This document shows positions 7,372-32,840 of a stretch of 64,000 nucleotides of DNA, one piece after another (position 1 is the first letter of the stretch; every line of letters begins with the position of its first letter). Under the pieces are notes generated by a model. That model was given only the letters and a program-made list of their open reading frames with translations. It had not been told where the DNA came from and did no database searches. The position numbers were made by a program, and so were the translations under genes. The DNA is taken from contig DATGXO010000107.1 of assembly GCA_035298965.1 (NCBI GenBank), positions 38,860 through 102,859 of the forward strand, in the 5' to 3' direction. Source of the stretch: Opitutaceae bacterium. GTDB taxonomy: Bacteria; Verrucomicrobiota; Verrucomicrobiia; Opitutales; Opitutaceae.

Positions 7372-7385
7372 ACTGCTGAAGCGGC

Positions 7386-9580: not shown

Positions 9581-9636
9581 GGCCGTGCGGGGTTGGCACG
9601 CGCGCAGTGGGACGAACGTGGGCGGGAGCCGGGGGT

Positions 9637-11348: not shown

Positions 11349-11430
11349 CGGCGGATGGTTGGCGCGGTCGCGGACGACCGGCGTGGGCAACCGGGTGGAT
11401 TGAAACGACGGAAAGGCGGGCGCGGACGGC

Positions 11431-12324: not shown

Positions 12325-12326
12325 GT

Positions 12327-13460: not shown

Positions 13461-13470
13461 GGTTGCCAAC

Positions 13471-16647: not shown

Positions 16648-16650
16648 CGA

Positions 16651-17574: not shown

Positions 17575-17582
17575 CGGAAAGG

Positions 17583-18167
17583 TTAGGACGGGAAAGGGAC
17601 GGAGCCGCGGCGGAAGGGGTCGTCGCAACGCACGGTGCCGACGACGCGCGCAGGATTGCCGACGACGATGGCGCGGGCGGGCACATCGCGCGTGACGACG
17701 GCGCCTGCACCGATCACGGCGTGGTCGCCGATCGTCACGCCGCGCAGGACGGTGGCGCGGTTGCCCAACCAGACGTTGCGGCCGATGGCGACGGGCGCGA
17801 CGGCGATCGGCGCGTCGGCATGGACGGGGTGGAAATCGGTGTCGAGCACTGAGACCCACTCGCCAAGCAGGCAGTTTTCGCCGATGCGGACGGATTGTGC
17901 GGCGGCGAGGGCGGCACCGCGGTTGATGAATGTGCCGCGGCCGATCGTGAGCGTGCCGCCGGCGAGCGCGGTGAGGCGCACGGGAAAGAGCCGGCTGTCG
18001 ATGGAAACGTGGTCCGCGATCTTCACCTGCCCGCCGCCGGAGACGACCGGTGCGGCGCCGAGGAGACGCAGACCGCGGCCGGCTTGCACGCCGGCGCGAC
18101 GGCGGAAGCGCCACACGCGGAATGTGGCGGCGAACTGGCGCAGGCGGTGGGAGAACGAGGCGGACAT
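17583..18167 (-). CDS. Hexapeptide-repeat (LbH) sugar O/N-acetyltransferase
   Basis: Repeated [LIV]-G-x4 units: IGENCLLGEWVSV, IGRNVWLGNRATV, IGDHAVIGAGAVV, then VVGNPARV. Confidence 0.75.
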   Translation of the reverse strand: MSASFSHRLRQFAATFRVWRFRRRAGVQAGRGLRLLGAAPVVSGGGQVKIADHVSIDSRLFPVRLTALAGGTLTIGRGTFINRGAALAAAQSVRIGENCLLGEWVSVLDTDFHPVHADAPIAVAPVAIGRNVWLGNRATVLRGVTIGDHAVIGAGAVVTRDVPARAIVVGNPARVVGTVRCDDPFRRGSVPFPS

Positions 18168-18176
18168 TGCGAGGGC

Positions 18177-19589
18177 TCAGTCGGCGGCGGAGTCGTAGAC
18201 GCAGATGATGCGTTCGAGACGTTCGTCGGTCACCCGGATCCAATCGCGCGGTGGACGGCCGAACCAGCTGAGAATCTTGGGTTCATCGATGGGATCCTGC
18301 TGGTGGTAGTGGCACATGCCGGCGGGCCAGCGGTACGGGACCGAGGCGATGACGGTGCGTCCGGTGGCGAGGAGCTTGCGCGCGAAGGCGGCCGGATCGG
18401 AGAGGTGCTCCAGCACCTGGAGACAGAGCACGAGGTCGAAGCGGCGGCCCGGATCATAGACGAAGAAGTCGCCCTGCACGCCGCGCACGCCGGGAATCTC
18501 GGGCTTGAGCGCGATGTCGATCGCGGTCTTGTCGGGGATCCACTCGAGGCGGCGCAGGAAGGCGGTGTTGCGCGGGCCAACCTCGAGGACGGACCCGGCG
18601 GTGGCGGCGTGCTCGGTGGCGAGGCGGCGGACCTCGAGGTAGTAGTTCATCTCGCGCCGATGCTCCCAGTATTCGGAGGAGTCGCGGCGGAGCAGGCGCG
18701 GGAGCACGAGGCGGGCGGCGCGGAGGTTTTCGCGGGAGAAGGGGCGGTGGACGAAGGCGCCGCCGAGGTGGCGGAGAGCGGCGCGGCGCTGGTGGTGCGC
18801 GGAGGCGTAGAGCGCCCATTCGCGCTGGGTCGCGGCGGCGTCGCGCTCGTGGAGGAGCGGGCGGACGGGCGGGGGGACGAACGCCACGCCGCGGCGCGCG
18901 GCGGTGCGGCGCAGGATGCCTTCCTTGAGCTCCCGTTTCTTCGTGCCGTGGGTGAAGTTGGAACTGCCCGGGTGCAAACGGTAACGGAGGAGCGGAGACA
19001 GAAGATTGGCGAGGCGGCCGACTTCGGCGAGGCGCAGGAAGATGTCGAGGTCCTGCGAGTAGGGCAGCTCCTCGTTGTAGCCGCCGACTGCGAGCAGGGC
19101 GTCGCGGCGGAAGACGAGCGTGGGATGGATCATCGCGCCGCCGTTGCCGGTGAGGAGCTCGCGGTCGATGGCCTCGTGGAGGGCGGGCGGATCATAGCGG
19201 TTCACCGGCGCGCCGTGGTCATCGATGCTGTGGACGGAGGTGCCGAGCGCGACGACCGCGGGATGCGACTCCAGATAACGGAGCTGCTGCGTGAGGCGGT
19301 CGGGCTCGGCGAGATCGTCGGCATCCATGCGGGCGACGAAGGGCGCGGTGGCGAGGGCGAGGCCGCGGTTGAGCGAGCGGGTGATGCCGCGGTTCTCCTG
19401 GTCGATGCAGTGGAGGCGCGGATCGGCGGCGGCGAAAGCGCGGCAACGTTCGCCGCTGCCGTCGGTGGAGCCGTCGTTGACGAGGATGAGACGGAAGTCG
19501 GCGAGCGTCTGCCGCTGGAGGCTGCGGACGGCGTCGTCGAGGTAGCGGCCGGCATTGAAGACCGGCATGACGATGTCAACGAGCGGCAT
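18177..19589 (-). CDS. Fusion protein: N-terminal GT2 glycosyltransferase plus C-terminal class-I methyltransferase-like domain
   Basis: N-terminus VDIVMPVFNAGRYLDDAVRSLQRQTLADFRLILVNDGSTDGS...MDADD. C-terminus FDLVLCLQVLEHLSDPAAFARKLL is Methyltransf_11/23-like, but motif I reads VLEVGPRNT instead of GxGxG. Confidence 0.7.
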   Translation of the reverse strand: MPLVDIVMPVFNAGRYLDDAVRSLQRQTLADFRLILVNDGSTDGSGERCRAFAAADPRLHCIDQENRGITRSLNRGLALATAPFVARMDADDLAEPDRLTQQLRYLESHPAVVALGTSVHSIDDHGAPVNRYDPPALHEAIDRELLTGNGGAMIHPTLVFRRDALLAVGGYNEELPYSQDLDIFLRLAEVGRLANLLSPLLRYRLHPGSSNFTHGTKKRELKEGILRRTAARRGVAFVPPPVRPLLHERDAAATQREWALYASAHHQRRAALRHLGGAFVHRPFSRENLRAARLVLPRLLRRDSSEYWEHRREMNYYLEVRRLATEHAATAGSVLEVGPRNTAFLRRLEWIPDKTAIDIALKPEIPGVRGVQGDFFVYDPGRRFDLVLCLQVLEHLSDPAAFARKLLATGRTVIASVPYRWPAGMCHYHQQDPIDEPKILSWFGRPPRDWIRVTDERLERIICVYDSAAD

Positions 19590-20841
19590 GGGCGTGAGGG
19601 CGGCCGGTGATCGCGGCGAGGAGCGGGCCGTAGCAGCGCTCCGGCGAAAAACGGGAGAGCGCGAGGTCGCGGCCCTGTTTGGCGCGGGCGGCGCGGGCGG
19701 CGGGATTGCGGAGGAGCGCGACGATCTGGGCGGCGAAGTCGACGGGGGTGTCGGCGGGCGGGAGCGTTTCCGAGAGGAAGCCGAGGCCTTGGAGACCGGT
19801 CGAGGTGGTGACGACGGCCTTCCCGTGGGAGAGCCCTTCGAGGAGTTTGATCTTCACGCCGCCGCCGTGGTGGAGCGGGACGAGCACGAGCGCGGACGCT
19901 CCGTAATGGACATCCGGCGACTCGATGAAACCGAGGTTCTCGACGCTGGGATCGAGGCCGGTGAGGCCTTCGCCGACGCGGCCGCAGATGCGCAGGCGTG
20001 CGGCGGGGTGGTCGCGCAGCACGCGGGGCCAGACCTCGGCGAGCAGCCAGGCGAGGCCGGCCCGGTTGGAGGGGTTGTGGCTGCCGAGGTAGAGGCAGAG
20101 GTCGGGGTTCTCGGTGCCGGGCGCCTGCTCGGCGGTGACGGCCTTCGGCACGAGGATGATCCGTTCCGGCGGGACGAGCTCGGTGTAGGCGGCGTAGTCG
20201 TCGTCCGAGATGGCGACCACGCGGTCGGCGACGGACAACATGGCGGACTCGGTACGGGCGGTGAGGTAGTCGAGGCTGCCGGGGGCGAGCAGCGCGGCGG
20301 TCGAGCGAGCCTTCTGATGCCAGACGTTGTGGCTGAGCATGATCGTCGTGGCGCCGTTGGCGACGGTGCAGGCGCTGCCGAGCCACGGGTAGTTCACGAG
20401 GAGGGCGTTGGGCCGGAGGCGGCGCACGAGGCGGGCGACGAAGGCGAGCTCGGACTGGTCAAGCGGGCGGTACCAGCGCGGCACTCCGTTGGGGATGCCG
20501 GCGAAGGGCACGATCTCGTTGGGGGAGGCCGGCTCGGGTTGGAGGCGCGAGCCGAGGCGGCGGGCGGTGCGACCACCGAGGGGCAGGCGCTCGGGGAAGA
20601 AGTGCGTGCCCGCAACGTGGACACTGCGGCGGAAGTGCAGACGGCAGACGGAGGCGAGCTCGGCGGGTGTGCGCCAGCGCCAGGAGTTGGCGACTTCCGC
20701 GGGTTGCTCGAGCCAGGCGACGTGGCACCGCACGCCGTGCTCGGTGAGGAAGCCCATCATCTCGTGGAGCAAGGCGCTGGCGCCATCGTCCTGCGGGCGC
20801 GGGCTGTGGCGCGTGACGAAGAGGGCAAGTGGGGCTGCCAT
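19576..20841 (-). CDS. Glycosyltransferase GT-B (GT4-like)
   Basis: ATG 20841: MAAPLALFVTRHSPRPQDDGASALLHEMMGFL... C-terminus GGGVKIKLLEGLSHGKAVVTT is typical of GT4. The track ORF to 21108 is over-extended. Confidence 0.7.
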   Translation of the reverse strand: MAAPLALFVTRHSPRPQDDGASALLHEMMGFLTEHGVRCHVAWLEQPAEVANSWRWRTPAELASVCRLHFRRSVHVAGTHFFPERLPLGGRTARRLGSRLQPEPASPNEIVPFAGIPNGVPRWYRPLDQSELAFVARLVRRLRPNALLVNYPWLGSACTVANGATTIMLSHNVWHQKARSTAALLAPGSLDYLTARTESAMLSVADRVVAISDDDYAAYTELVPPERIILVPKAVTAEQAPGTENPDLCLYLGSHNPSNRAGLAWLLAEVWPRVLRDHPAARLRICGRVGEGLTGLDPSVENLGFIESPDVHYGASALVLVPLHHGGGVKIKLLEGLSHGKAVVTTSTGLQGLGFLSETLPPADTPVDFAAQIVALLRNPAARAARAKQGRDLALSRFSPERCYGPLLAAITGRPHAHAAR

Positions 20842-20863: not shown

Positions 20864-22111
20864 TCAGGCGGAGCTGATGGCGAAGGCGGGCTCGATGCGG
20901 CAGCCGCCGAACGAGCGGTCGCTCTCGTGGTCGTGCACGCTGGTGACGACCTCCCAGAGGGCGAGGGAGCCGATGCTGTCGTAGTAGTGGCGGCCGGAGC
21001 CGATGGCGGCGCTGATCTGGTAGGCGCCGGGGTGGAGCGGCAGGCGCGGGAGTTCGAGGCGGATGCGGCTGGTGCCGGCGGGCAGGGTGAAGGTGCGGCC
21101 GCCGCCATCCGAATCCAGGGTGAGGATGCGCTGGCCGTCGACGGTGCGGAAGCCCAGGCCGAGCATCATGTTCTCAAGGGTTTCGCGCGCCTCGACGACG
21201 AACTCGATCGCGAAGGGCTGGTTGAAGCGCAGGCCGCCGGGGGAGACGACGGCGACCTCCTTGAAGCGTGCGGTGCGGGCCTCGGCGCCGGGGCTGCGTT
21301 TGGCGGCGGTGAGGTCGAGTGTGAGCGCGGAGGCGCCGGAGCCTTGGGCGTAGTGCTCGATCGCGGTGTCGACATCCATCGGGCCGCTGGAGCGGCCGCC
21401 ATCGAGGAGGACGCAGCGTTTGCAGAGGCGGCGGATGGCCGTCATGTGATGGCTGACAAAGAGGACGGTGCGGCCGGAGCGCTCGGAGACATCGGCCATC
21501 TTGCCGAGGCATTTGCGCTGGAACTGCTGGTCGCCGACGGCGAGGACCTCGTCGACGATGAGGATGTCGGGCTCGAGGTGGGCGGCGACGGCGAAGGCGA
21601 GGCGGACGTACATGCCGCTCGAGTAGCGTTTGACCGGCGTGTCGAGGAAGCGCTCGACCTCGGAGAAGGCGACGATCTCGTCGAACTTCCGGGCGACTTC
21701 GGCGCGGGTCATGCCGAGGATGGCGCCTTTGAGGAAGATGTTGTCGCGGCCGGAGAGCTCGGGGTGGAAACCGGTGCCGACCTCGAGGAGGCTGCCGACG
21801 CGGCCGCGCAGGCGGATCTCGCCGGAGGTGGGCTCGGTGATGCGGGAGAGGACCTTGAGAAGGGTGCTTTTGCCGGCGCCGTTGCGGCCGATGATGCCGA
21901 GGGCTTCGCCGGGCTGGACATCGAAGGAGACGTCGCGGAGCGCCCAGAAGTCGCGTTTGTCCTCGCGAGGTGCGGCGGCGGGTTTGCCGCCGGCGAGCGA
22001 GCGGCACCAGCGGCCGAGACGTTCGACATCATCGCGGAGCGAGGTCATGCCGATGTGGCCGAGTCGGTACTTCTTGGAGACTCCGCGGATTTGGATGATG
22101 GGACGGGACAT
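20864..22111 (-). CDS. wzt: Polysaccharide ABC exporter ATP-binding protein with C-terminal glycan-binding-type domain (Wzt/TagH-like)
   Basis: Walker [10 protein letters not shown], signature YSSGM, Walker B ILIVDE. An extra roughly 160-aa C-terminal beta-rich domain follows, as in Wzt proteins that read a chain terminator. Confidence 0.85.
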
Positions 22112-22121
22112 GCGGGAAAGA

Positions 22122-22150
22122 GGCGAGAGGCTAGAGGGAAGAGGCGAGGG
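22122..22150. repeat. Purine-rich leader motif: exact GGCGAGAGGCTAGAGG at 22122-22137 plus GAAGAGGCGAGGGG
   Basis: Read directly in the 51-nt wzm-wzt spacer. Confidence 0.85.
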
Positions 22151-22162
22151 GACGGAGCGGGC

Positions 22163-23029
22163 TCAGACGGTGTCGACGAAGGTGCGGGCGGCGCGCTGGT
22201 AGGCGAAGATGCCGACGAGGAAGACGAGGATGGAGAGCGCGACGGATTGGGCGTACTGCGTCGCGTCGACGTGGCCGACGCCGAGGAAGAGGCGACGGGT
22301 GGCCTCGACGATCGCGGTCATCGGATTGAGTTGGGAAACCCAGCGCCACTTCTCCGGCACGCGGGAGAGCGGATAGATGATCGGCGTGGCATACATCCAG
22401 AGCTGGATGATGAACGCCTGGATGTGGTGCAGGTCGCGGTATTTTGCGGTGAGCGTCGAGAGGATGAGTCCGATGCCGAGGGCGAGCACGGCCATGTGCA
22501 GGACGATGGCTGGGTACGCGAGCCAGACCAGCGACGGGCCGGCGACGGCGGGGTTGTGCGCGAACCAGTGTTCGCGGACGAAGAACGTGAAGAACGTGAG
22601 CAGCTGGATGCTCAGGGCGATCAGACACGAGACGGCGAGCGCGAACGGCGGGATCAGGCGCGGGAAATAGACCTTCGAAAAGAGCGCGGCGGAGCCGGCG
22701 AGGGAGTTGCCCGTCGCGCCGAGCACGGCGGCGAAGTACGTCCAGCCGAGCATGCCGCAGAGGTAGAAGAGCATCGGCGGGACGCCGTCAGTCGGGACGC
22801 CGATGACCTTGTTGAAGATCAGGGTGAACGTGAAGGTCGTGATGAGCGGGTTCAGGAAGAACCACGCGGGCCCGAGGATCGTCTGCTTGTACTTCGCGGT
22901 GAAGTCGCGGAGCACGAGTTGGCGCAGGAGATCGCGGTATTCGATCAGGCCGCGCCAGTCGAAGACGAACCAGGCGGTCGTGGGCTTGATGACGATCTCG
23001 GTTTCCGAGGACGGTGGCAGTGTGCTCAT
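22163..23029 (-). CDS. wzm: ABC-2 type polysaccharide exporter permease (Wzm-like)
   Basis: ATG 23029: MSTLPPSSETEIVIKPTTAWF...LVLRDFTAKYKQTILGPAWFFLNPL, the ABC-2 signature region, and 6 hydrophobic spans. Confidence 0.85.
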   Translation of the reverse strand: MSTLPPSSETEIVIKPTTAWFVFDWRGLIEYRDLLRQLVLRDFTAKYKQTILGPAWFFLNPLITTFTFTLIFNKVIGVPTDGVPPMLFYLCGMLGWTYFAAVLGATGNSLAGSAALFSKVYFPRLIPPFALAVSCLIALSIQLLTFFTFFVREHWFAHNPAVAGPSLVWLAYPAIVLHMAVLALGIGLILSTLTAKYRDLHHIQAFIIQLWMYATPIIYPLSRVPEKWRWVSQLNPMTAIVEATRRLFLGVGHVDATQYAQSVALSILVFLVGIFAYQRAARTFVDTV

Positions 23030-24615
23030 GCGGAAGGTAGGCGTGGATGGAGGCGGGCGGCGGCGGTGGGCAGCTCGTCGGTATGGGTCGACGTGAAGGC
23101 GGATTCCAGCGATTCGCGTGCCGGGGCGGCACGCACGATCGCGAGGGCGAGAAGGGCGGCGACGGAGGCGAGGCCGAGCACGGCGGGATTGCGTAGGACG
23201 AAATCGATCCAGCCGTGCGCGAGCACGAACGCGGCGCCGGTGGCGAGCAGCGCGGCGGCGGGCACGAAACTCCACGCGCGGCGGAGCGCGGCGAGCCAGA
23301 CCAGCCACGGGGCGGCGAAGAGCGCGGTGCCGACGAAGCCGAACTCGGCGCTGAACTCGACCCAGTCGCCGTCGGCGTGGACGTGCACGGGGCGATTCCA
23401 GTTCGGTTGAAAACGGCGCACGGCTGCGGCGAAGGTGGGCACGCGTTGCTGGTACTCAGGGAAGAGGATCACGTAGCTGCCGGCGCCGTGGCCGAGCCAT
23501 GGGCGGTCGAGCGTCATCTGCCAGGCGATGTCGTGGAGGATGCGCCGATACGAGCCGCCGACGAGAAGATCGCCCGGCTCGCGCGCGAGTTCGGCGACGC
23601 GGTGCAGCGTCGCGCGGACCGGCGGCAGCAGCGCGAGGCCGGCGGCGAAGACGAGCGCCGCGGCTGCGCCGACCGTGAGGAGGCGCGGGCGGGAGAACCA
23701 GCGGTCACGCAACGGCCAGAGCACGAAGGCGGCGGCGGATGCTGCGAGTACCGCGGCGCCGGCGAGGCCGGCGCGGGAGCGGGTCGTGACGGTGCCGAGG
23801 AAGACGAGCGCGACGAGCAGACCACACCAGAGATTGCGTCGGCGCAGGAGCGGCCACGGGCGCAGCGGCGTGGGCGCGAACCAGGCGGCGAGCGCGAGCG
23901 CGAGCAGCACGACCTGATAGGCGGCCTGCTGGTTCTTGTACGGGAACTGCGGCGCGCCGAGGTGGAACGCGGCGTCGGACACCAGCCAGAGCACGGCGTG
24001 CGAACCGGAGAGGTTGTGGGCGAACGCGAACGCGGAGAATGCCGCGGCGTGGAGCGCGAGCAGGCCGAGCACGGCGGAGAGGAAGGGTACGCGGCGGCGC
24101 AGCGCGGCGAAGGCGGCGAGCGGCAGACCGGCGGCGGCGGCGACGAGCAGTTGGCGCCAGGCGTTGGCAAAATCGAGGAAGTCGCCCGGCAGGCGGTCGA
24201 AGGGGCCGGCGATACCGGTCGGCAGCCAGGCGCGATGCGCGAGCGGCACGATCGCGCCGACGGGACGGCGATCCGGAATCAGGAGACGGTCGGGGTTGAT
24301 CGCCTGACAGAGCAGGAGTCCGGCGAAGGCGAGCGCGCAGAACACGACGAAGGGCGAGAAGAGCGGCGCGGCATCCGCGCGCACGGTGCCCGCGCGATCG
24401 CCGTCGCCGGTGGGCCACGCCACGAGCCGGCGACGGGCGGCGAGCCGGGCGAGCACGAACGCGATGCCGCCCACCGCGGCGGCGAGCGTCTGGCCGCCGA
24501 CGGTCGACGCGCCCAGCCACCATGCCGGCGCGATCCACGCCACGGCCAGCGCGCAGAGCACGACGCGCTCCGCGGAGGAGAGCGTGTCGGACGGCGCGTT
24601 GGTGGCGGCGGTCAT
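23026..24615 (-). CDS. Wzy_C-domain membrane protein (O-antigen ligase / O-oligosaccharyltransferase-like)
   Basis: 529 aa, at least 10 hydrophobic spans, TTRSRAGLAG loop motif, GHGAGSY segment. ATGA overlap with wzm. Confidence 0.65.
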   Translation of the reverse strand: MTAATNAPSDTLSSAERVVLCALAVAWIAPAWWLGASTVGGQTLAAAVGGIAFVLARLAARRRLVAWPTGDGDRAGTVRADAAPLFSPFVVFCALAFAGLLLCQAINPDRLLIPDRRPVGAIVPLAHRAWLPTGIAGPFDRLPGDFLDFANAWRQLLVAAAAGLPLAAFAALRRRVPFLSAVLGLLALHAAAFSAFAFAHNLSGSHAVLWLVSDAAFHLGAPQFPYKNQQAAYQVVLLALALAAWFAPTPLRPWPLLRRRNLWCGLLVALVFLGTVTTRSRAGLAGAAVLAASAAAFVLWPLRDRWFSRPRLLTVGAAAALVFAAGLALLPPVRATLHRVAELAREPGDLLVGGSYRRILHDIAWQMTLDRPWLGHGAGSYVILFPEYQQRVPTFAAAVRRFQPNWNRPVHVHADGDWVEFSAEFGFVGTALFAAPWLVWLAALRRAWSFVPAAALLATGAAFVLAHGWIDFVLRNPAVLGLASVAALLALAIVRAAPARESLESAFTSTHTDELPTAAARLHPRLPSA

Positions 24616-24659
24616 GGAGGTTGGTTGTTGCGGGCCAAGTCGGCGACCTGGCCTACAGG

Positions 24660-25940
24660 TCAGAACGTGCAGGAGACGAAGCCGGCGATGACGTGGCGGT
24701 CGTAGTCGAGCAGGTTGTTGTTCGAGCGGGAATTCGTGTAGGTGTAGTCGGCGCCGGCGGCCCAGGTGCGGTTGATCGAGTAGGAGAGATTCAGGCCGGC
24801 GCGGGTGCGCTCATCGTTGCGGCTGGTACTCGGGAAGTCGGCCCATTCCTCGGCGAGGCTGAGCGAGGCGCGGGTGCGTTGTCCGATGCGTTGGGTGACG
24901 CCGAGGCGGAGGGACGAGCTGACGGTCGAAAGGTTGTCGGCGCTGAGGCCCTGCTGGCGGCTGGCGTTGACCGATACGACGGTGCGCTCGCGGGCGTGCC
25001 AGGAGAGGGAGAGATTGCCGACGAGGGTGGCGCGACCGTGGTCGTTGAGGCCGACGGCCTCGCCCTGTTCGTAGCCGATGGAGAACGAGCTTTCGAGCTT
25101 CGGGAAGCGGGTCGGAGGGAGGAACGGTCCGGTGAGGCGGAGGCCGAAGGTCATGCTGCTGTCGTCCTTGTTGCGGTCGAGGGTCTCGTCCTGACCGCGT
25201 TTGAGCCAGCGGTAGCCGACATCGGCAGAGGCGCGGAGGCCGCTGATGAACTTGTAGAAGAGGCCGCTGCTGAGGGAGTGCGACTGTTGGTCGATGGAGC
25301 CGGCGGCGCCGTTGGAGTTGCTCACCGTATCCGTATAGCGGTAGTCGGCGCCGAGGCCGAAGCCGCCGAGGAAGTCGTTGTAATCGAAACCGGCGCCGGC
25401 GTTCCACTGGGTGCGGTCGGTGAAGACGTCGCGGGAGGTCTCGGTGTAGGCGAGGTTGGTGCGGAGATCGACGCGCGGGCCGGCGCGGTAGGTGCCGGAG
25501 AAACGGCCGCCCCAAGTCGTCGCGCGGACGCGGGCGCCGACGGTCTCGTCGACATCGGTCGTGTCGGAATAGTTGGCGGAGAACACGCCCTCCTGGCGCG
25601 CGCCCTCGGGGGTGGGCAGGTCGACGCGGAGGGAGGCGTGGTAGCCTTCGTTATCGAGGTTGGTGAAGTCGGCGTAGCGGTTGATGGAGACGCCGGCGGA
25701 GGCATCGATCGTGCCCAGGCCGGCGGCGCGGCGGTAGGCGAAGGTGGGCGCGAGGGTGTAGATCGTGTCGTCGAGTTCGCTGGAGTTGCCGAGGAGGTTG
25801 GTGTCGTAGGAAATGCGGCCGATCGTGGTGAGCGTGAGGGAGCCGCGGGCGAACTCCGCGAGGGCGTGGGCGGTGGCGGGGAGGACGAGGGTCGCGAGCA
25901 GCGCGGCCGGGAGCAGGGCGGTTTTTGGGGCGGTATTCAT
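24660..25940 (-). CDS. Outer-membrane beta-barrel protein, polysaccharide/PEP-CTERM-locus type
   Basis: Signal peptide (LLATLVLPATAHA), alternating-residue strands rich in Y/G/S/T/N, and a C-terminal aromatic residue (…GFVSCTF). Confidence 0.6.
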   Translation of the reverse strand: MNTAPKTALLPAALLATLVLPATAHALAEFARGSLTLTTIGRISYDTNLLGNSSELDDTIYTLAPTFAYRRAAGLGTIDASAGVSINRYADFTNLDNEGYHASLRVDLPTPEGARQEGVFSANYSDTTDVDETVGARVRATTWGGRFSGTYRAGPRVDLRTNLAYTETSRDVFTDRTQWNAGAGFDYNDFLGGFGLGADYRYTDTVSNSNGAAGSIDQQSHSLSSGLFYKFISGLRASADVGYRWLKRGQDETLDRNKDDSSMTFGLRLTGPFLPPTRFPKLESSFSIGYEQGEAVGLNDHGRATLVGNLSLSWHARERTVVSVNASRQQGLSADNLSTVSSSLRLGVTQRIGQRTRASLSLAEEWADFPSTSRNDERTRAGLNLSYSINRTWAAGADYTYTNSRSNNNLLDYDRHVIAGFVSCTF

Positions 25941-27538
25941 GGTGTAACGCTTTCGAAACGGACGAGCTGGGGAAGGGCCGCGCGCAGGGCGGCGACGGCG
26001 GAGTCGTAATCGTAGACGGCGCCGGAGAGGGTGATGCCGAGCACGCGTTGGCCGAGGTTGCGGTTACCGGCGAGGACGGAGGCGAGGCGTTCGTCGGCGG
26101 CGACCTGGCGGTAGTCGAGATGTTCGCCGCTGACGGAGGGGCGTTCCTCGACGAGGCCGTGGAAGACGTAGAAGCGCTGGCCGGCGCGCTCGAAGATGTA
26201 TGTGCGGAACGGGATCGTGAGCGTGCCGACGGTGAGGGGCAGCACGTCGCGGTTTTCGACGAGCTCGAGGCCGGAGGCGGGGAAGCAGACGGTCGGGTAA
26301 TGCGAGCCGGCGAGAAACTTGGAGACGCGGCCCGGATCCCAGCGCAGGAAGAACGCCTGCCAGCGGATGCCGTCGGCATCGGTCCACGAGCCGCGGGCAC
26401 CGTCGTTGTGCTTGAGGAGCTTGACGGTGCGGTCGTCGAACGGCGTGGACTTGTAGTCGGCGGCGGCGGTGGGCCAGGCGATGTCCCAGCGCAACGGCGC
26501 GGGCAGGCGGCTCTCATGGTAGCCGTACCAGGCGCGCGTGGTGACCTCGCCGGTGAGCAGCCCGACGAGCAGGACGACGAAGGGCGTGATTGCGACGCGC
26601 GGGGTGGCGAGCAACGACGTGCCCGGACCGCCGGCGAGGGCGCGCGGACGGTTGCCGCGGGCGACGAGGGCTGCGAGCGCCCACAGCCCGGCGATGCAGC
26701 CGATCATGACGAAGTTGCCCATCGGATCGTGCCAGCGGTGCAGGGCCTCGGTGCCGTCGCGGCCGGCGACGTAGGTGAGGGTGACGGTGCGGGCGGTGTT
26801 GAGGAGGAAGGCGACGACGAAGCTCGAGAGGACGAGCACGATCCGGCGGACGAAGCGGAGGCGGTAGAATTCGCCGAGGAAGAGCGACATCATGAACGCA
26901 GTCTGGAGCGAGCGGATACCGCTGCACGCCTCCTCGACATCGACGAGCGACTGGCCGATCGCGATGGTGTTGCCTTGCGCGAGCGCGGGGATGCCGCAGA
27001 GGGAGAGGCCTTCGGCGCTGATCTGGGTGTTGAGCTGCATGAGGCCCTGCGTGAAGGCCTCCTCGGCCCAGACCGGCCAGGGCAGCGCGGTGAGCGTGAA
27101 GAACACCGGGAAGGCGAAGTGCCAGGTCCAGCGCCAGCCGCCCCAGGCGGTGAGCACGGCGAAGGTGGAGCCGAGCGCGGCGACGGCCATGAGCCAGTTG
27201 ATGCGCACCCAGTCGGGGTTCGCCTCGTGGATGACGCGCAGCGGCACGAGGGCGAGCGCGACGAGCGTGAGGACGAGGGCGGGGAGCCAGTTCGCGGCGC
27301 GGGCGAGCGGCGCGGCGGCATCGCGGAGGCGTTCGAAGACGAGATAGCCGGCGAGTGCCGGGATGGCCCAGCCGTACGAATACAGCGGGTTGACCCGCCA
27401 CTCGAGGCTCTGTTGCGACCAGACGGCCAGCCAGAGCGCGCCCAGGCCGAGCGCGACGGCGACGAGATCTCCACGGAAGGCCAGCGGGCGACTGGTCGAA
27501 CTGGCCGTGGCGGGCGCGGACGAGGCGGCGGTGGGCAT
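25937..27538 (-). CDS. Exosortase fused to a C-terminal EpsI-family domain
   Basis: ATG 27538. Multi-pass N-terminal half carries the exosortase catalytic motifs EEACSGIRS and LLNTARTVTL. A soluble C-terminal domain of roughly 200 aa has EpsI layout. Confidence 0.8.
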   Translation of the reverse strand: MPTAASSAPATASSTSRPLAFRGDLVAVALGLGALWLAVWSQQSLEWRVNPLYSYGWAIPALAGYLVFERLRDAAAPLARAANWLPALVLTLVALALVPLRVIHEANPDWVRINWLMAVAALGSTFAVLTAWGGWRWTWHFAFPVFFTLTALPWPVWAEEAFTQGLMQLNTQISAEGLSLCGIPALAQGNTIAIGQSLVDVEEACSGIRSLQTAFMMSLFLGEFYRLRFVRRIVLVLSSFVVAFLLNTARTVTLTYVAGRDGTEALHRWHDPMGNFVMIGCIAGLWALAALVARGNRPRALAGGPGTSLLATPRVAITPFVVLLVGLLTGEVTTRAWYGYHESRLPAPLRWDIAWPTAAADYKSTPFDDRTVKLLKHNDGARGSWTDADGIRWQAFFLRWDPGRVSKFLAGSHYPTVCFPASGLELVENRDVLPLTVGTLTIPFRTYIFERAGQRFYVFHGLVEERPSVSGEHLDYRQVAADERLASVLAGNRNLGQRVLGITLSGAVYDYDSAVAALRAALPQLVRFESVTP

Positions 27539-27542
27539 GGGA

Positions 27543-27572
27543 GGCGAGAGGCTAGAGGCGAGAGGTGAGAGG
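27543..27572. repeat. Purine-rich leader motif: exact GGCGAGAGGCTAGAGG at 27543-27558 plus CGAGAGGTGAGAGG
   Basis: Read directly in the 44-nt spacer between the wzc-like stop and the exosortase start. Confidence 0.85.
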
Positions 27573-27582
27573 ACTGAGAGCG

Positions 27583-29790
27583 TCAGGCCTTCGTGGACTC
27601 CTTCTCGCCGTAGGCTTGGTAGTAGTCCTTCCCGTAGGCGCCGTAGCCATCGTAGTCGTAGCTGAGCACGCGCGAGCGGGGGAGTTGGTTGAGGACGACG
27701 CCGAGCACGTACGCGCCGGTCTCGTCGAATTTCGCGAGGGTTTTCTTCACGATGGCCCGGCGGACGGTCTTGAACTTGGTGACGTAGATGACCTCGGCGG
27801 CGTGGCGGGCGAGCAGCAGCGCATCGGGGAAGACGGCGGAGGGCGGCGTGTCGAGGATGACGATGTCGAACGAGCGCTTGAGGCGATCGAAGAGCGGGGA
27901 GACGGCGAGGCGCTCGATGATCTCGGTGGGTTTCTTCACGGCGCCGCCGGCGCTGAGGAGGTGGAGGTTGGGCGAGAGCAGGCGGATGCCGAGATCCTCC
28001 TCCTCGGCGGTGGCGAGATCGGGGAGGCGGTGGTCCTGCGCCCAGCGGAGGACGCCGCGGTCGTTGGGCACGCCGAAGAGGCGGTGCTGCGAGGGGCGGC
28101 GGAAATCGCAGTCGACGATGAGGGTGCGGCGGCCGTGGGCGGCGAAGACGGCGGCGAGGTTGGCGGAGGTCACGCTCTTGCCTTCGCCGGGGACGGAGCT
28201 GGCGACGAGGAGGACCTTCGGGGTGGGGATGTCGCTGCGGAGCTCGATCTCGCTGTAGAGGCCGCGGTAGCACTCGACGAGGGCTTCATCGGTGCCGTCG
28301 CGGAAGACGGTGGCGTGCTGCTGGGTGGGGATGTTCTTGAAGAGGCGCACGCCGGCGAGCAGGTGGGTCTGGAGTTTGTCCTCGATGTCGGAGGCGGACT
28401 TAATGCGCGTATCGAGGAAGCCGAGGCCGAGGGGGAGGCTGAAGAGGAGGAGCACGCCGAGGGCGCCGGCCTTGGCGGCGATCTGGCCCTTGCCGCGGTT
28501 GATGGGGGAGCTGGGGATGTAGGCGCGGTCGAAAACCTTGATGTTGGTGTTCTCCATCTGCGCGGAGATGTTGGCGTCGTTGAGCCGGTTCATGATCGCG
28601 CGGTAGGTGTCCTGCTTGGTGCGCGCGAACTGCTCGAGGAATTTGTAGTCGACGGAGATCTTATCGAGGGCCCGGGCGTCGTTCTCGGCGGAGACGAGCT
28701 CGGTCTTGAGCTTGGAGACGTAGGAGGCGGCGAAGGCGGTGCGGGTGCGGAGGTCGGCGATGGCGAGGTCGATGTCGGCGGCGAGGTGCTTGCGGGCGTT
28801 GTCGAGAGCGAGGGCGTTGTCCTTCATCTTCGGGTGCTCCTCGAGGTAGCGTTCCTCGAGGTGGCGGCGGGCGGCGAGCAGGCCGTCGATCTGGCCGCGG
28901 GTGGAGGCGATGCCGCCGAAGCCGTTGATGTAGGAGATCTCCTGGAGGTCGCGTTTCTCGCGGAGGTAGGTCTCCACCTTGTCGAGCTGCTCCTGGAGGC
29001 TGACGAGGTTGAGCTGGGCGCCGACGAGGGATTCGCCGAGGGAGGCGACCTTCTTGAGGACGACGTTCTGGTTCTCGCCGAGGGCGGCCATGTTGTACTT
29101 CGCGCGGTACTGCTGGAGATTGCGCTCGGCCTCCTCGACCTCCTTGCGCGTGTCCTCGGCCTGGTTACGGAGGAAGACGATGGCGGAGTTGGTGCCGGTC
29201 ATCGCGAGGTCGATGTTGAAATCGATGTACTTGCGGGCGTAGCGGTTGGCGATGAGGGCGGCGGCCTCGGGATCGCGGTGGAAGACGGAGATGCCGAGGA
29301 TGGTGGTGCCTTTGCGGGCGTAGACCTTCACGCGCGGGCCGAGGATCGCGGCGAGCGAGGGCGGGGGCGCATCGGGGCGCTCGGGGTCGCGATAGGGACG
29401 CTGGATCTTCTCGATTTCCTCGGCGGTGAAGGAGGCTTGGAGGGCTTCGAAGAACGTCTGGCTGCGGATCTGCTCGAGATGGACGTTGAGCTCGGCGTCG
29501 CGGGTGATGGTGGTGTCGACGACGGCCTGGACCGGGAGCACGCGGTTGGCGCGGGTCTCGAAGAGGAGGGAGGCCTCGGTCTGGTAGACGATCTCGGGCT
29601 TGGGCTGGAGGACGATGAACGCGACCACGGCGGGCACGGCGACGAGGGCGCCGATCCACCAGCGTTCGAGGAACATCCGCCAGAGGTCGCGCGGGTGGAC
29701 CGAGAAACCGGCCGGGGCGGCGGCGGCCTTCGTGGCGGCGCCGGAGCGTTTGGGTGTGGAGCGGGACGCTTGGTTAGGCGAGGTGGACAC
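27583..29790 (-). CDS. wzc: Polysaccharide co-polymerase / BY-kinase (Wzc/GumC-type PCP-2a)
   Basis: Two TM segments flank a long coiled-coil periplasmic region. Walker A SSVPGEGKS, A' LIVDCDFRRP, B IVILDTPP. Tyr-rich tail SYDYDGYGAYGKDYYQAYG. GTG start. Confidence 0.85.
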   Translation of the reverse strand: MSTSPNQASRSTPKRSGAATKAAAAPAGFSVHPRDLWRMFLERWWIGALVAVPAVVAFIVLQPKPEIVYQTEASLLFETRANRVLPVQAVVDTTITRDAELNVHLEQIRSQTFFEALQASFTAEEIEKIQRPYRDPERPDAPPPSLAAILGPRVKVYARKGTTILGISVFHRDPEAAALIANRYARKYIDFNIDLAMTGTNSAIVFLRNQAEDTRKEVEEAERNLQQYRAKYNMAALGENQNVVLKKVASLGESLVGAQLNLVSLQEQLDKVETYLREKRDLQEISYINGFGGIASTRGQIDGLLAARRHLEERYLEEHPKMKDNALALDNARKHLAADIDLAIADLRTRTAFAASYVSKLKTELVSAENDARALDKISVDYKFLEQFARTKQDTYRAIMNRLNDANISAQMENTNIKVFDRAYIPSSPINRGKGQIAAKAGALGVLLLFSLPLGLGFLDTRIKSASDIEDKLQTHLLAGVRLFKNIPTQQHATVFRDGTDEALVECYRGLYSEIELRSDIPTPKVLLVASSVPGEGKSVTSANLAAVFAAHGRRTLIVDCDFRRPSQHRLFGVPNDRGVLRWAQDHRLPDLATAEEEDLGIRLLSPNLHLLSAGGAVKKPTEIIERLAVSPLFDRLKRSFDIVILDTPPSAVFPDALLLARHAAEVIYVTKFKTVRRAIVKKTLAKFDETGAYVLGVVLNQLPRSRVLSYDYDGYGAYGKDYYQAYGEKESTKA

Positions 29791-29868
29791 GTTGCGAAAG
29801 GGCTCGAGGTTGCGTGGCAGGGCGCGGGCTCCCGGCGGCGGTGAGCGCGTCGGGAGCAGGGCGGTGGT

Positions 29869-30558
29869 TCAGAAGAGGCGTTCGGGGATCCAGATCCGGT
29901 CGCCGGGGATGATGGCGAACTCCTTGGGCGTGTCGGGGCCGGCGCCACGGCGGGTGAGCATGGCCTCCACGTTGATCTCGGTGGTCGTCTCGCGGCCGTC
30001 GGCGCCGAGGCGGGTGACGCGGACCGAATCGGAGCGGGCGGTGGGGAGGAAGCCGCCGGCGCGCGTGATGACATCGGTGATGTCGAGCGTGCTCTTCTCG
30101 GGCGGGAACGCCATCTTGCCCGGGCCGCGCACGGCGCCGAGGATCGAGATGTCGCGCACGGCGTACGCTTGAACCGAGATGTTCACCATCGGGCTCTTCA
30201 GGATGCGACGATCGACGTAGAGCTTCTCGATGAGTGTCTCGGATTCGCGTACGGAGCGGCCGGCGAGTTCGATGTCGCCGACGAGGGCGAGGCGGATGCG
30301 GCCGCGGGAGTCGATCTTCTGGGCGAGGGAGAGTTCGCCTTCGCCGTAGACGTTGATCGAAACGAGGTCGCCGTTGACGAATTTGTACGCGGGATCGGGC
30401 ACCTCGCCGACGGGGGCGACCGCGGCGGGCGCGGTGTTGGCTGGCGTGGTGGTGGCGGCGGGCGCCTGGGCGTGGGCCGCGAGGGCGGCGGAGCCGAGGA
30501 GGGCGGCGAGGAGCAGGAGGCGGAGCGCGCGGTGCATGGCGGAGAGGCCGGAGTTCAC
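29869..30558 (-). CDS. wza: Short outer-membrane polysaccharide export (OPX, Wza-like) protein
   Basis: Signal peptide, Poly_export-type segment YKFVNGDLVSINVYGEGELS, and one SLBB-like domain. At about 229 aa it lacks the C-terminal helix of group-1 Wza. The GTG 30558 overlaps the vapC stop; ATG 30537 is an alternative start. Confidence 0.75.
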   Translation of the reverse strand: MNSGLSAMHRALRLLLLAALLGSAALAAHAQAPAATTTPANTAPAAVAPVGEVPDPAYKFVNGDLVSINVYGEGELSLAQKIDSRGRIRLALVGDIELAGRSVRESETLIEKLYVDRRILKSPMVNISVQAYAVRDISILGAVRGPGKMAFPPEKSTLDITDVITRAGGFLPTARSDSVRVTRLGADGRETTTEINVEAMLTRRGAGPDTPKEFAIIPGDRIWIPERLF

Positions 30559-30968
30559 GTTTCGAGGGGCAGGGCGAATTGTTGGACGAGATCGCCCGGG
30601 ATGCGGGCGAGGGCGGGATCGCGATGGACGAGCACGGCGCCCTCATGGCGGGCGGTGGCGGCGACGAAGGCGGCGGAAACGGGGAGCTGGCCGCCGGCGC
30701 GTTCGAGGATGCGCTCGGCGTCGGCTACGACCTCGCGGGTGACGGGAAGGGCGGCGATGAGTTCCTCGGCGTAGAGGCGGTAGGCGCGGCGCGCTTCGGC
30801 GGGGTCGGGCACGGCGGAGGCGAGGCGCGACTTGAGATCGATGAGGGCGGTGGCGGGAAGGCCGATCTCGACGGAGTTGTCGGCGAGGAGGGCGTTCACC
30901 TGCTCGGCGCCGGGCTCCTGGAAGTAATGCGCCAAGATCGCGGAGGGATCGAAAACGTGGGTGATCAT
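30555..30968 (-). CDS. vapC: PIN-domain toxin (VapC)
   Basis: ATG 30968: MITHVFDPSAILAHYFQEPGAEQV... with acidic PIN residues. The late motif is AVLVHRDPALARI. ATGA overlap with vapB. Confidence 0.8.
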   Translation of the reverse strand: MITHVFDPSAILAHYFQEPGAEQVNALLADNSVEIGLPATALIDLKSRLASAVPDPAEARRAYRLYAEELIAALPVTREVVADAERILERAGGQLPVSAAFVAATARHEGAVLVHRDPALARIPGDLVQQFALPLET

Positions 30969-31186
30969 CGGGACGACTTGGACGCAGCGACGGCGCCGAG
31001 GTAGGCGCGGCCGGCACCGAGCAGGCCGTTGGCGATGGCCTTGCGATCGGGGAGGACGCGCACGCGGATGACCGCGGGCTGATTGGTGGGCTGCCATTCG
31101 AGGCGGCTGCCGGGCACGATACCCATCGCGGTGGCGAGCTTCGCGGGAATCGTGATCTGATGTTTGCCGGTGACCGTGGTGATCAT
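30965..31186 (-). CDS. vapB: AbrB/SpoVT-fold antitoxin (VapB)
   Basis: ATG 31186: MITTVTGKHQITIPAKLATAMGIVPGSRLEW, the looped-hinge-helix signature. 73 aa. Confidence 0.75.
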   Translation of the reverse strand: MITTVTGKHQITIPAKLATAMGIVPGSRLEWQPTNQPAVIRVRVLPDRKAIANGLLGAGRAYLGAVAASKSSR

Positions 31187-31236
31187 GTTGGAACGTGGGG
31201 GACGAGGCGGCGGGAAAAGTGTTGGGCGGATCAAGA

Positions 31237-31248
31237 CAAGCTACCGCC
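31237..31248 (-). promoter_or_regulatory. ops-like element GGCGGTAGCTTG (matches GGCGGTAGnnTG)
   Basis: The plus strand reads caagctaccgcc at 31237-31248. The site lies between the RfaH-like gene's stop and the vapB start, on the non-template strand of the operon. Confidence 0.5.
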
Positions 31249-31350: not shown

Positions 31351-31905
31351 TCAGCCGCAGGAAGCCAGGAGTTGCGGAGGAAAATCGAGCGAAGCCGGGC
31401 CCGTGCGACGGAGCGCGGCGGCGGGAAGGTCGATGCGCAGTTCCTGCCCGAGCAGTGCGAGCAGCACGCAGGCGCGGCTCCGGCCGGAATCGAAGGTGAC
31501 GATGCGCCCCTCGCTGCCCGCGAGGCACCCGGACAGCACCTGGATCCAATCGCCCGGAGCGAGCACGGGCGCGCAGGGTTGCACTCCGGAGGCGTGGGCG
31601 CGCAGCAACTCGATGAGCGAGCCGGGCACGGCCGGCGTGTGAGCGCCGAGCCGCACGAGGCCGGTCACATCGGGAGTGCTGGCGACGAAGCGGGAATCGG
31701 CTTCGAGGTCGAAACGCGCAAAAAGGTAACCCGGGAAAAGCGCCTCCGTGCGCACGGCGACGGCCCCGCCGCGCAGAGGCCGACGAACGGCCAACCGCGG
31801 CGCGAATGCCTCGATCCCGGTGCGGTCGGCCAGCTGCCGCGCGGCGAAGTGTTCACGCTTCGGGCAGGCGCGCAGGCAGTACCACTGGAGACGGGAGGTG
31901 TTCAT
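31351..31905 (-). CDS. RfaH-like NusG paralog (operon-specific transcription antiterminator)
   Basis: ATG 31905: MNTSRLQWYCLRACPKREH...EALFPGYLFARFD...GLVRLGAHTPAVPGSLIELL...PGDWIQVLSGCLAGSEGRIVTFD...ACVLLALLG. It is colinear with the E. coli RfaH NGN and KOW domains. The track ORF adds 59 implausible N-terminal residues. Confidence 0.75.
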   Translation of the reverse strand: MNTSRLQWYCLRACPKREHFAARQLADRTGIEAFAPRLAVRRPLRGGAVAVRTEALFPGYLFARFDLEADSRFVASTPDVTGLVRLGAHTPAVPGSLIELLRAHASGVQPCAPVLAPGDWIQVLSGCLAGSEGRIVTFDSGRSRACVLLALLGQELRIDLPAAALRRTGPASLDFPPQLLASCG

Positions 31906-32840
31906 GAGCGACGGGCAGGAAAGGCCGCGGGCGAACCGAATCCGGCAACTCCGGACACCGCCGTGGAACTTGGGCGGTGCAGGCGGGCTGGGCGGCTGGA
32001 TCGGCGGTGCGTCATGGAAAAACTCAAAATCAAGGAATTCGCGGCTGGAGCTGTGCAAAACGCCACCCCTCGATCGGGGCAAACGGCGAAGCGGGCTTTC
32101 CGTCGTGCTTGACGTTTTTTTTACGACCTGATGCCCGAAAACCCGATCATGGAAATGGGGGAAACTCTTAGGCTTCGTCGGGGTTGCTGGTAGCCGCGCG
32201 AGTATGCCGCGGATTCATGGAGGAGGGCGGTTTCGGGGAATACCCGATGGCGCGGCCTGCTCACCGGTTCGCTGCGCCCCAAAAGCAGGCCGCCTCCGCA
32301 GCGGTGCACTGTTGCGTGCCCGGTTCAGCCAGGTCGCAGAGACGGAATGCGAACCCAGGAAGATTCCCGGGGGAGCGAGGGCGTGGTGCAGGCGCTCACC
32401 CAGATGACGTGCGGGTTCTCCGATGTTCTTCGGTCCGAAGGCGCCGCAGGTTCTTCCACGTGGCAGAATGCTCTCTTGCCGTATCTCCGTGTCCCCCGGG
32501 GCCGACTGCTTCGTTTGGGGTGGGTGAAGCCGGTGTGAGCTGCAGGTACCTCTGCGGCGGACAGTGGAGGAGAACTCCCACGCGAGCTCCGCCTCGGCAG
32601 CAGCGACGAGTCGGGTGTGCGAATTACGTGCGGGGCGAGCTGCCGACCGGATCGATGCGTGGGCACTGGAGCGAGACGGATTCGGTCGACGCAACGCCGG
32701 CGTGGAGCGCTGCGGCTGTCAGCCGACCCCGAGGCCGTTGTGGCTCTGGTTGGCGGGGTACGTTGTACCGCTGCGGCGGTATGAGGTCGGCGGTGGTGCC
32801 GGCGAGTGGACGGCGCGAAGCGAGGTGACGCTCGGCCGCC

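Follow-up and report, generated by a model that had tools for sequence, protein, structure and literature searches.

A conserved export head joining Wzm/Wzt, a Wzy_C-family enzyme, an exosortase and a PCP/OPX/barrel set in Opitutaceae

We analysed a 64,000-nucleotide stretch of DNA from an Opitutaceae bacterium (contig DATGXO010000107.1 of assembly GCA_035298965.1), hereafter called the window. A run of genes at 20864-30558 encodes an ATP-binding cassette (ABC) glycan exporter (Wzm/Wzt), a Wzy_C-family membrane enzyme, an outer-membrane beta-barrel, an exosortase (Xrt), a polysaccharide co-polymerase (PCP) fused to a bacterial tyrosine kinase (BY-kinase), and an OPX protein (outer-membrane polysaccharide export). 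By evidence that is computational throughout, the block forms, in a clade of uncultured Opitutaceae, the conserved export head of a single ~41-kb surface-glycan operon with an RfaH-like gene and an ops-like site as its leader. We give about even chances to a pathway in which the ABC transporter exports a capped glycan that is handed to the PCP, the OPX protein and the barrel and is partly ligated by the Wzy_C enzyme, with the exosortase co-expressed.

Gene order and conservation of the export head

The minus strand carries every gene across 1-32082 of the window, whose G+C content is ~70%; features below are on this strand unless stated otherwise. In hidden Markov model searches, the export head reads in transcription order rfaH-like, vapB, vapC, OPX, PCP, xrt, barrel, wzyC, wzm, wzt, followed by the glycan tail. 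An independent gene call on a Logan contig gave the same products. These results confirmed all the genes named in an earlier, sequence-only reading of this DNA, with their strand and order, as well as the ATGA coupling that it had described between the Wzy_C gene and wzm. A second ATGA overlap joins the xrt stop to the barrel start. The remaining intergenic gaps in the block are 17-78 nt, and no terminator-like site was found on the minus strand between 19000 and 31386.

At the operon head lies an RfaH-like NusG paralogue (31351..32082; PF02357, E 1e-12). Its coordinates are those of the longest open reading frame (ORF), and the true start is probably later. The TIGR01955 RfaH model gave 81.9 bits, under its cutoff of 144.5, and relatives have the RfaH-like gene at the matching position. 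The ops-like 12-mer GGCGGTAGCTTG is located at 31237..31248 on the minus strand, between the rfaH-like gene and vapB. It is the one match in the window, versus 0.06 expected by chance.

Wzm (22163..23029) is an ABC-2 permease of 288 aa with PF01061 at E 7e-19. Wzt (20864..22111) combines an ABC ATPase (PF00005) with a C-terminal Wzt_C carbohydrate-binding domain (PF14524, 36.7 bits vs a cutoff of 30.4). All three families scored above cutoff, as in ABC-dependent O-polysaccharide (O-PS) export with a carbohydrate-binding module (CBM) on Wzt. Wzm/Wzt is the only inner-membrane exporter in the part of the operon inside the window and across the whole operon of a close relative.

The OPX protein (29869..30537) is short, at 222 aa, with a signal peptide, PF02563 (Poly_export) at E 8e-16 and one SLBB domain; its matches to TIGR03027/03028 were below cutoff. 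It has no long C-terminal outer-membrane helix region and is thus class-3-like under the published class definition (PMC9603273). The same operon encodes a Wzp-like/EpsL-like beta-barrel (24660..25940; PF10082, E 6e-13) with a signal peptide, a C-terminal Phe and weak TIGR03016/EpsL matches. A Poly_export/SLBB-only OPX protein together with a PF10082 barrel is the class-3 OPX and Wzp-type arrangement. The PCP (27583..29790; 735 aa) is Wzc-like, with TIGR01007 at 133 bits vs a cutoff of 108 and GNVR and ParA/AAA_31 matches. It has two transmembrane (TM) segments, the Walker A motif GEGKS and a C-terminal cluster of 7 Tyr, the features of a PCP-2a/BY-kinase.

Ten GTDB loci were collected with the Wzy_C profile, and their gene order was uniform wherever the contig allowed. 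With OMP standing for the barrel, the order RfaH-(VapBC)-OPX-PCP-Xrt-OMP-WzyC-Wzm-Wzt was kept in L002/L010, L004, L009, L011, L012, L017 and L020. These are all the clade loci of sufficient length, GTDB and metagenome contigs included, so the conserved wzm-Wzy_C-barrel-exosortase order that the sequence-only reading had put up for checking was found in each of them. Because the order is kept in every such locus, the data support a single functional unit rather than a chance neighbourhood. Across the clade, identity to the window was 73-82% for the PCP, 75-81% for Xrt, 73-81% for Wzm, 65-75% for OPX, 57-61% for the barrel and 59-65% for the Wzy_C protein.

These head identities stayed flat while the glycosyltransferase (GT) region was replaced in L005, L009, L011 and L012. 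In the replaced tails, GT4a fell to 31-35% identity or was absent. Wzt followed the GT set. Its nucleotide-binding domain (NBD) was 89% and its CBM 76% identical to the window when the GT set was the same, compared with 75% and 52-58% when the set was another; this co-variation is partly confounded by phylogeny, with the flat PCP and Xrt identities as control. The head/tail boundary therefore falls between wzm and wzt and places Wzy_C in the head, which argues against a repeat-unit-specific polymerase. Wzy_C identity was 59-65% whether the GT set was kept or replaced, which is not the behaviour of a Wzy repeat-unit polymerase. In L011, the Wzt protein (L011:12434-13522) has a conserved NBD (78% identity) and no detectable match to the window Wzt's C-terminal domain; the GT region there is entirely different.

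An exosortase alignment scan of metagenome contigs yielded 55 loci in three arrangements. Type A is the window's clade, with Xrt at least 62% identical to the window and the order (TPR)-RfaH-(VapBC)-OPX-PCP-Xrt-OMP-WzyC-Wzm-Wzt, where TPR is a tetratricopeptide repeat gene. Type B (10 loci, Xrt 47-50%) reads Xrt-TPR-OMP-OPX-PCP-(WzyC)-Wzm-..-Wzt, the Wzy_C-family gene being present in 2 of the 10 loci and directly upstream of wzm in both. Type C (Xrt 47-50%), found in O. terrae and 12 others, begins GT4-Xrt-TPR; three of its loci have a divergent RfaH-OMP-OPX-PCP unit ~5 kb away. The link of an exosortase and TPR gene with an ABC-fed OPX/PCP/barrel unit is thus common in Opitutaceae and is not an accident of the window. 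Since it recurs in three arrangements, the mix of pathways is recurrent in the family.

The operon runs off the window at position 1. We walked the same operon on a 4.5-Mb contig of a close relative (L015), which has ~90% DNA identity over the shared stretch. There it continues ~9 kb past window position 1, for a total of ~41 kb. The extra ~9 kb contain six GT4 genes, the first of which overlaps the window start, a WcaF-like acetyltransferase and a 460-aa protein with ~10 TM segments. Across the relative's ~41-kb operon there was no Wzx and no Bac_transf-type or WecA-type initiator, so the search for a priming transferase beyond position 1, as the sequence-only reading had advised, gave none in this relative. 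That reading had also noted that Wzx, a proper Wzy and a priming transferase were missing. This is correct inside the window, and for Wzx and the initiator it holds throughout the relative's operon; it does not hold for Wzy, because the 460-aa gene is Wzy-like and lies 1.7-3.1 kb beyond position 1 in the relative (L015:7477-8859). An initiating transferase outside the cluster is normal for ABC-dependent O-PS loci.

The 460-aa protein had no Pfam or NCBIfam match. Its GxGxG and E..G motifs are in register with the Wzy_C family, and hhalign of the head Wzy_C family against it gave a weak match (E 0.12). We found 948 homologues at 50-56% identity in Opitutus, Horticoccus, Termitidicoccus and Lacunisphaera. 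Some are named O-antigen polymerase or ligase in their source, and one carries PF04932. The label "Wzy-like" is taken only from the motifs, the topology, this one PF04932 homologue and the source names. The same GT4 genes flank the homologue in O. terrae, and in type C the gene lies ~9 kb downstream. Judged by sequence, it is probably the conserved Wzy/WaaL-superfamily enzyme of the family.

The glycan-specific tail (1..20841) comprises ~20 GT and sugar-modification genes assigned by Pfam matches. Two genes downstream of wzt is a GT2-methyltransferase fusion (18177..19589; PF00535 and PF13489), a candidate chain terminator or cap writer. Its 3' end at 18177 is firm, whereas the start at 19589 is that of the longest ATG ORF and agrees with a 470-aa product in the close relative. 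Enzymes of amino-sugar-type modification in the tail include a GFO oxidoreductase, a hexapeptide acyltransferase and a PP-loop enzyme. The only polytopic membrane protein in 1-20000 is an acyltransferase.

The Wzy_C enzyme, the exosortase and a likely client

The Wzy_C-family protein (23026..24615) is a WaaL-fold membrane enzyme of 529 aa, with PF04932 at 65.7 bits vs a cutoff of 31.7. Its AlphaFold2 (AF2) model has a pTM of 0.80. In a Foldseek search, the only significant PDB fold match of the model was the WaaL ligase 7TPG (E 1.6e-5, TM-score 0.52 normalised to target length); a sequence-level PDB search with the Wzy_C profile gave nothing relevant. R281, R357, the GxGxG motif, H413, D417 and E424 are conserved. 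Together, the fold model and these residues indicate a WaaL fold with a periplasmic Arg/His/Glu site. The close family is small, with 24 homologues, and all the source-named ones are from Opitutaceae. The wider profile search returned 1598 representatives at E<=1e-3, all of them full-length at ~500 aa.

We found none of the additional features of dedicated protein glycosylation enzymes. PF04932 is the only domain present; PglL_A and Wzy_C_2 are absent from the protein and from 41 wider relatives. No NCBIfam family matched the protein at E<=5, and the matches of 42 relatives included no ligase-type model. There was accordingly no match to TIGR03097, the exosortase-A-associated O-glycosylation ligase model. 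PglL/PilO/PglS/WsaB-type enzymes are recognised by accessory domains (PglL_A, Wzy_C_2 or TPR) or by an adjacent client gene, and neither accompanies the Wzy_C protein. WaaL and protein O-oligosaccharyltransferases have a common active-site layout (PMC12800693), and the acceptor of the Wzy_C enzyme therefore cannot be named from sequence or fold.

Wherever it is present in types A and B, the head Wzy_C gene lies directly upstream of wzm and either overlaps it or is separated from it by a few to ~100 nt. It is an accessory gene of the head, and its constant partner is wzm, not xrt. This rules out that the gene is positioned by the exosortase. Given this constant position next to wzm, the lipid-linked glycan that the ABC transporter exports is the probable substrate of the Wzy_C enzyme. 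In type A, including L017, a Wzy_C-family gene is always two genes from xrt; in L017 (Xrt 62%), the occupant of this slot is only 19% identical to the window protein, while its neighbours are 45-66% identical. In O. terrae, no Wzy_C gene is adjacent to the exosortase.

The exosortase (25937..27538; 533 aa) consists of an 8-TM core, one additional TM helix and, at the C-terminus, a periplasmic domain that resembles EpsI. PF09721 scored 156.7 bits vs a cutoff of 25.7 and the TIGR04178 signature 55.5 bits vs 23, which places it firmly in the family. The catalytic residues Cys205 (in an ACSGIRS motif), Arg250 and His270 are invariant in 51 homologous sequences. All subtype scores were under cutoff: XrtD, the best, had 133.5 bits vs 400, XrtA 99.9 vs 208 and XrtW 80.5 vs 425. 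Membership in XrtA or XrtD is ruled out by these scores, and the protein is an unnamed subtype present across Opitutaceae. Look-ups of Horticoccus and Nibricoccus exosortases returned nothing.

The sequence-only reading had called this protein an exosortase-EpsI fusion. The exosortase part was secure; the EpsI part stayed below threshold (PF11984 E 0.0033, 17.6 bits vs a cutoff of 26.1; EpsI_type_V E 0.12). The alignment to the XrtD model extends into the C-terminal domain, which has an invariant HYPTVC.PA.G motif. The AF2 model (pLDDT 86) has the extra TM helix and an alpha/beta domain, and Foldseek of the model gave nothing at E<=1e-3. Weak fold neighbours of the C-terminal domain (25940-26581) were DcrB, LpqN, MTC28, PsbP and Eag/SciW chaperones (probability 0.9-1.0, E 0.015-0.15), the last of which bind transmembrane helices. 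These neighbours hint at a possible role of EpsI-type domains in binding a hydrophobic peptide or a lipid.

A likely client of the exosortase is encoded outside the operon at 60476..61117 on the plus strand, and the protein ends in ...IPEPATYGLFLGAGLLVAVVVRRVTTKRA. Its identification as a PEP-CTERM protein in the sequence-only reading was borne out, with NF038129 at 113.8 bits vs a cutoff of 65 and TIGR02595 at 18.2 bits vs 16. It is the single confirmed PEP-CTERM protein of the window and supplies the genomic client expected of a PEP-CTERM/exosortase system. No PEP-CTERM gene was found within the operon, and no PrsK/PrsR regulators were seen. A PrsT-like TPR protein (71 bits vs a cutoff of 312) adjoins xrt in relatives only, so that the window shows none of these XrtA-type components.

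Proposed pathway and competing readings

The sequence-only reading had started from the premise that systems use either an ABC transporter or the Wzx/Wzy route with Wzc/Wza. This premise is stricter than published systems allow, since a PCP and an OPX protein also serve ABC-dependent capsule pathways, and short OPX proteins pair with beta-barrels (PMC9603273). What is unusual in the locus is the BY-kinase-type PCP, the ligase and the exosortase.

The pathway that we favour would run as follows. The downstream glycosyltransferases would build a complete glycan on a polyprenyl carrier at the cytoplasmic face, and the GT2-methyltransferase would probably cap it. The C-terminal domain of Wzt would license the finished chain, which Wzm/Wzt would carry across the inner membrane. 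Most of the chain would then pass to the PCP-2a BY-kinase, the short OPX protein and the beta-barrel and be released as capsule or slime. For a part of it, the WaaL-fold Wzy_C enzyme would take the chain off its lipid carrier en bloc and attach it to a conserved acceptor that faces the periplasm, most likely lipid A-core or another glycolipid and possibly a protein. The exosortase with its EpsI-like domain, co-translated in the operon, would cleave PEP-CTERM proteins, which would thereby enter the same glycan layer. The analysis establishes the identity, order and conservation of the genes, the split into head and tail, and the WaaL fold; we infer the route of export, the transfer to PCP/OPX and the two fates of the chain. 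The exosortase is most simply read as a co-expressed sorting enzyme for PEP-CTERM proteins that end in the glycan layer (PMC1569441).

Several points weigh against this pathway. Every type-A genome is a metagenome-assembled genome or metagenome contig. PCP-2a BY-kinases classically pair with Wzy polymerases, not with ABC exporters. A lipid A-core acceptor would send the product by Lpt rather than by PCP/OPX, and the dual fate is an assumption. The second Wzy-like gene in the distal operon allows a polymerase-based reading. The methyl-cap role of the GT2-methyltransferase fusion is suggested by its domain content alone.

Comparison with known systems showed partial likeness in each case. XrtA/PEP-CTERM exopolysaccharide (EPS) loci (PMC1569441; zooglan-type, 10.64898/2025.12.21.693542) likewise have an exosortase with an EpsI-type domain (a sub-threshold match in the window), OPX, a chain-length/BY-kinase protein, an associated barrel and many GTs. 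They also have PEP-CTERM clients in the genome and a PrsT-like TPR gene next to xrt, as in relatives of the window. Unlike them, the window has Wzm/Wzt with Wzt_C instead of Wzx/Wzy, shows no PrsK/PrsR, reaches no named subtype cutoff, and has an RfaH-like gene and an ops-like site as its leader in place of the sigma-54 motif. The E. coli O8/O9a-type ABC O-PS systems with WaaL share Wzm, CBM-Wzt, a candidate terminator (a GT that carries a methyltransferase), a WaaL-fold enzyme and the lack of an initiator in the cluster. In the window, however, this set sits among a PCP-2a BY-kinase, OPX, barrel and exosortase, which O-antigen systems do not use, and the ligase gene is coupled to wzm. The Myxococcus xanthus translocons of class-3 OPX and Wzp proteins (PMC9603273; 10.1101/2022.04.04.486985; PMC12819527) resemble it in the short OPX protein without an outer-membrane-spanning part, the dedicated barrel and the PCP. 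They are Wzx/Wzy-dependent, whereas the window set is fed by an ABC exporter and its barrel gene is split from the OPX gene by PCP and xrt. Group 2 capsule systems (KpsMT-KpsE-KpsD) also combine an ABC exporter, a PCP and an OPX protein. The window differs in having a PCP-2a BY-kinase instead of KpsE, an O-PS-type CBM on Wzt, a ligase and an exosortase, with no KpsS/KpsC-type genes seen. A group 2 (Kps) capsule is ruled out by the wrong PCP type, the CBM on Wzt and the lack of Kps-specific genes. We found no paper that combines wzm/wzt/wzc/wza with an exosortase.

The sequence-only reading proposed that the Wzy_C protein moves the ABC-exported glycan onto PEP-CTERM proteins. Its first half, action on the ABC glycan, gains support from the linkage to wzm. 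The PEP-CTERM acceptor is without specific support: the Wzy_C gene is missing in 8 of the 10 type-B heads, the protein has neither PglL_A nor Wzy_C_2, and the operon has no PEP-CTERM gene. In its full form, the enzyme would be a protein O-oligosaccharyltransferase that moves the glycan en bloc to Ser/Thr/Tyr of PEP-CTERM proteins during exosortase processing, which we regard as unlikely. A precedent exists in the S-layer slg clusters of Geobacillus stearothermophilus and Paenibacillus alvei (PMC2943079), where a complete, methyl-capped lipid-linked glycan is exported by Wzm/Wzt and transferred en bloc to protein by the Wzy_C-domain enzyme WsaB/WsfB, with TPR and Asn-synthase homologues nearby in some members. 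These clusters differ from the window in being Gram-positive, with an S-layer client nearby, a WbaP-type initiator in the cluster and no OPX/PCP/barrel/exosortase, and a protein acceptor in the window is only hypothetical. The WaaL fold match fits an O-oligosaccharyltransferase equally well, as these have the WaaL site layout (PMC12800693). A Wzy_C-family gene stays two genes from xrt in all type-A loci, even where the occupant is as divergent as in L017, the window encodes a confirmed PEP-CTERM protein, and the second, family-wide Wzy-like gene could take over polymerase or lipid A ligase duty and free the head enzyme. Against this, the Wzy_C gene tracks wzm and not xrt, being absent also from the O. 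terrae xrt neighbourhood; PF04932 stands alone in the protein and its 41 relatives, without an NCBIfam match; the operon has no client gene; and the positive support is gene order alone. An exosortase-made bond is quite unlikely in our estimate. Here the exosortase, as a Cys transpeptidase, would cleave at PEP and couple the C-terminus so formed to an amine of the lipid-linked glycan that the ABC transporter had exported, much as PorU attaches cargo to A-LPS; Wzy_C would then ligate this glycan to its lipid anchor. Haft proposed transfer to a periplasmic nucleophile (PMC1569441), and Veith et al. raised the speculation that an amino sugar is the acceptor in PEP-CTERM systems (PMC7468200). PorU attachment to A-LPS in the type IX secretion system also couples a sortase-like enzyme to a WaaL-dependent surface glycan, although the machinery is unrelated and the likeness is one of analogy (PMC7468200). 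The intact, invariant Cys/Arg/His of the exosortase, the amino-sugar-type enzymes in the operon, the Asn-synthase homologue near O. terrae xrt, and the place of xrt inside the export head, translationally coupled to the barrel gene in the window's clade, would all fit. The papers that we found, however, gave no chemically defined exosortase product, and the fold matches of the EpsI-like domain are weak. Taking both kinds of linkage together, we consider it doubtful that PEP-CTERM proteins become covalently bound to the capped Wzm/Wzt glycan on the outer side of the inner membrane, by Wzy_C O-glycosylation or by exosortase transpeptidation, with the glycoconjugate leaving via PCP/OPX/barrel. 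Covalent protein-glycan ideas for PEP-CTERM systems have already been published (PMC7468200; preprint 10.64898/2025.12.21.693542). If true, this reading would define the attachment partner of the exosortase and a glycoprotein export route through capsule machinery.

Two further readings change the role of the exporter or divide the operon. A PCP-2a and a Wzy protein are a canonical pair, and PF04932 covers polymerases too. The Wzy_C protein might then be a Wzy-type polymerase acting with the PCP-2a, with Wzm/Wzt replacing Wzx and flipping an oligosaccharide or short blocks for periplasmic polymerisation and export by OPX/barrel. No Wzx was found in ~41 kb, and the slot occupant diverges far faster than its flanks, as the L017 values show. 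This reading is nevertheless improbable to a similar degree as the exosortase-made bond: the clade identity of Wzy_C does not respond to a change of GT set, unlike that of repeat-unit-specific polymerases, the Wzt CBM and the GT2-methyltransferase fusion indicate finished, capped chains, most type-B heads have a PCP-2a yet no Wzy_C, and the fold match is WaaL. The locus could also hold two independent systems in one operon, an ABC O-antigen set (Wzm/Wzt/WaaL and GTs) and an EPS export set of the PEP-CTERM kind (OPX/PCP/Xrt/barrel) served by a Wzx, a Wzy and GTs that are encoded elsewhere. Wzm/Wzt with a WaaL-like ligase and an initiator outside the cluster is the standard O-PS layout, as in E. 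coli O8/O9a, and the ligase does track wzm. We hold this division to be very unlikely, given that the link of OMP-OPX-PCP with Wzm-Wzt recurs in three gene orders and many loci, that the genes are interleaved (Wzy_C and Wzm after the barrel) and overlap with no terminator-like site, and that one ops/RfaH-like leader serves the whole run.

Accessory genes and meaning for Opitutaceae

Between the ops-like site and the OPX gene lie a VapB/AbrB-type antitoxin (30965..31234; PF04014, E 1e-6) and a VapC PIN-domain toxin (30555..30962; PF01850, E 2e-11), the latter at a conserved position in relatives. The pair is kept in L002, L004, L009, L011 and L012 and is absent from L017, a deeper type-A locus, which suggests that it was inserted later and then became fixed at the operon head. 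In L002, L017 and L020, a PrsT-like TPR gene (857-867 aa) is upstream of the rfaH-like gene. In its place the window has an ORF-poor region of ~0.8 kb (32083-32840) followed by folD, and no TPR homologue was found anywhere in the 64-kb window.

Three tail genes and two genes in other loci also deserve description. The adjacent paralogues at 2159-3091 and 3327-4262 (minus strand) are 37% identical to each other, have no significant family match and are both conserved in the close relative; O. terrae has a single homologue, 39-44% identical to each. Their GT8-like DxD context suggests uncharacterised glycosyltransferases. The product of the gene at 8399-9580 (minus strand) has a PP-loop (SGGIDS) and a cluster of Cys at its C-terminus; it matched no family significantly (LarE E 0.05, DUF6395 E 0.0085). 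The relative's operon keeps this gene, which may be relevant to amidated or amino-acid-modified sugars. Between wzm and wzt, the type-B loci L024, L026, L032, L035 and L064 have a conserved ORF of ~310 aa (MKTVVYQSFRTE...) with a DxD-like WVDADAVVF motif. L017 has an FkbM-like methyltransferase after wzm.

PEP-CTERM/exosortase systems are widespread in environmental and floc-forming bacteria, and the field has still to define how sorting works chemically and how the clients are linked to exopolysaccharide. If the Wzy_C protein is merely an O-antigen ligase beside capsule genes, the gain is limited to a useful rule for annotation. The locus otherwise offers a compact gene set for asking whether a PCP-2a/OPX system accepts an ABC-exported polymer, and for asking whether protein and glycan are linked by a wzm-coupled WaaL-fold enzyme or by an exosortase. 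Together with the three arrangements in relatives, the locus ties the exosortase of Opitutaceae to a route fed by an ABC exporter and not by Wzx/Wzy, with a modular export head and a swappable glycan tail.

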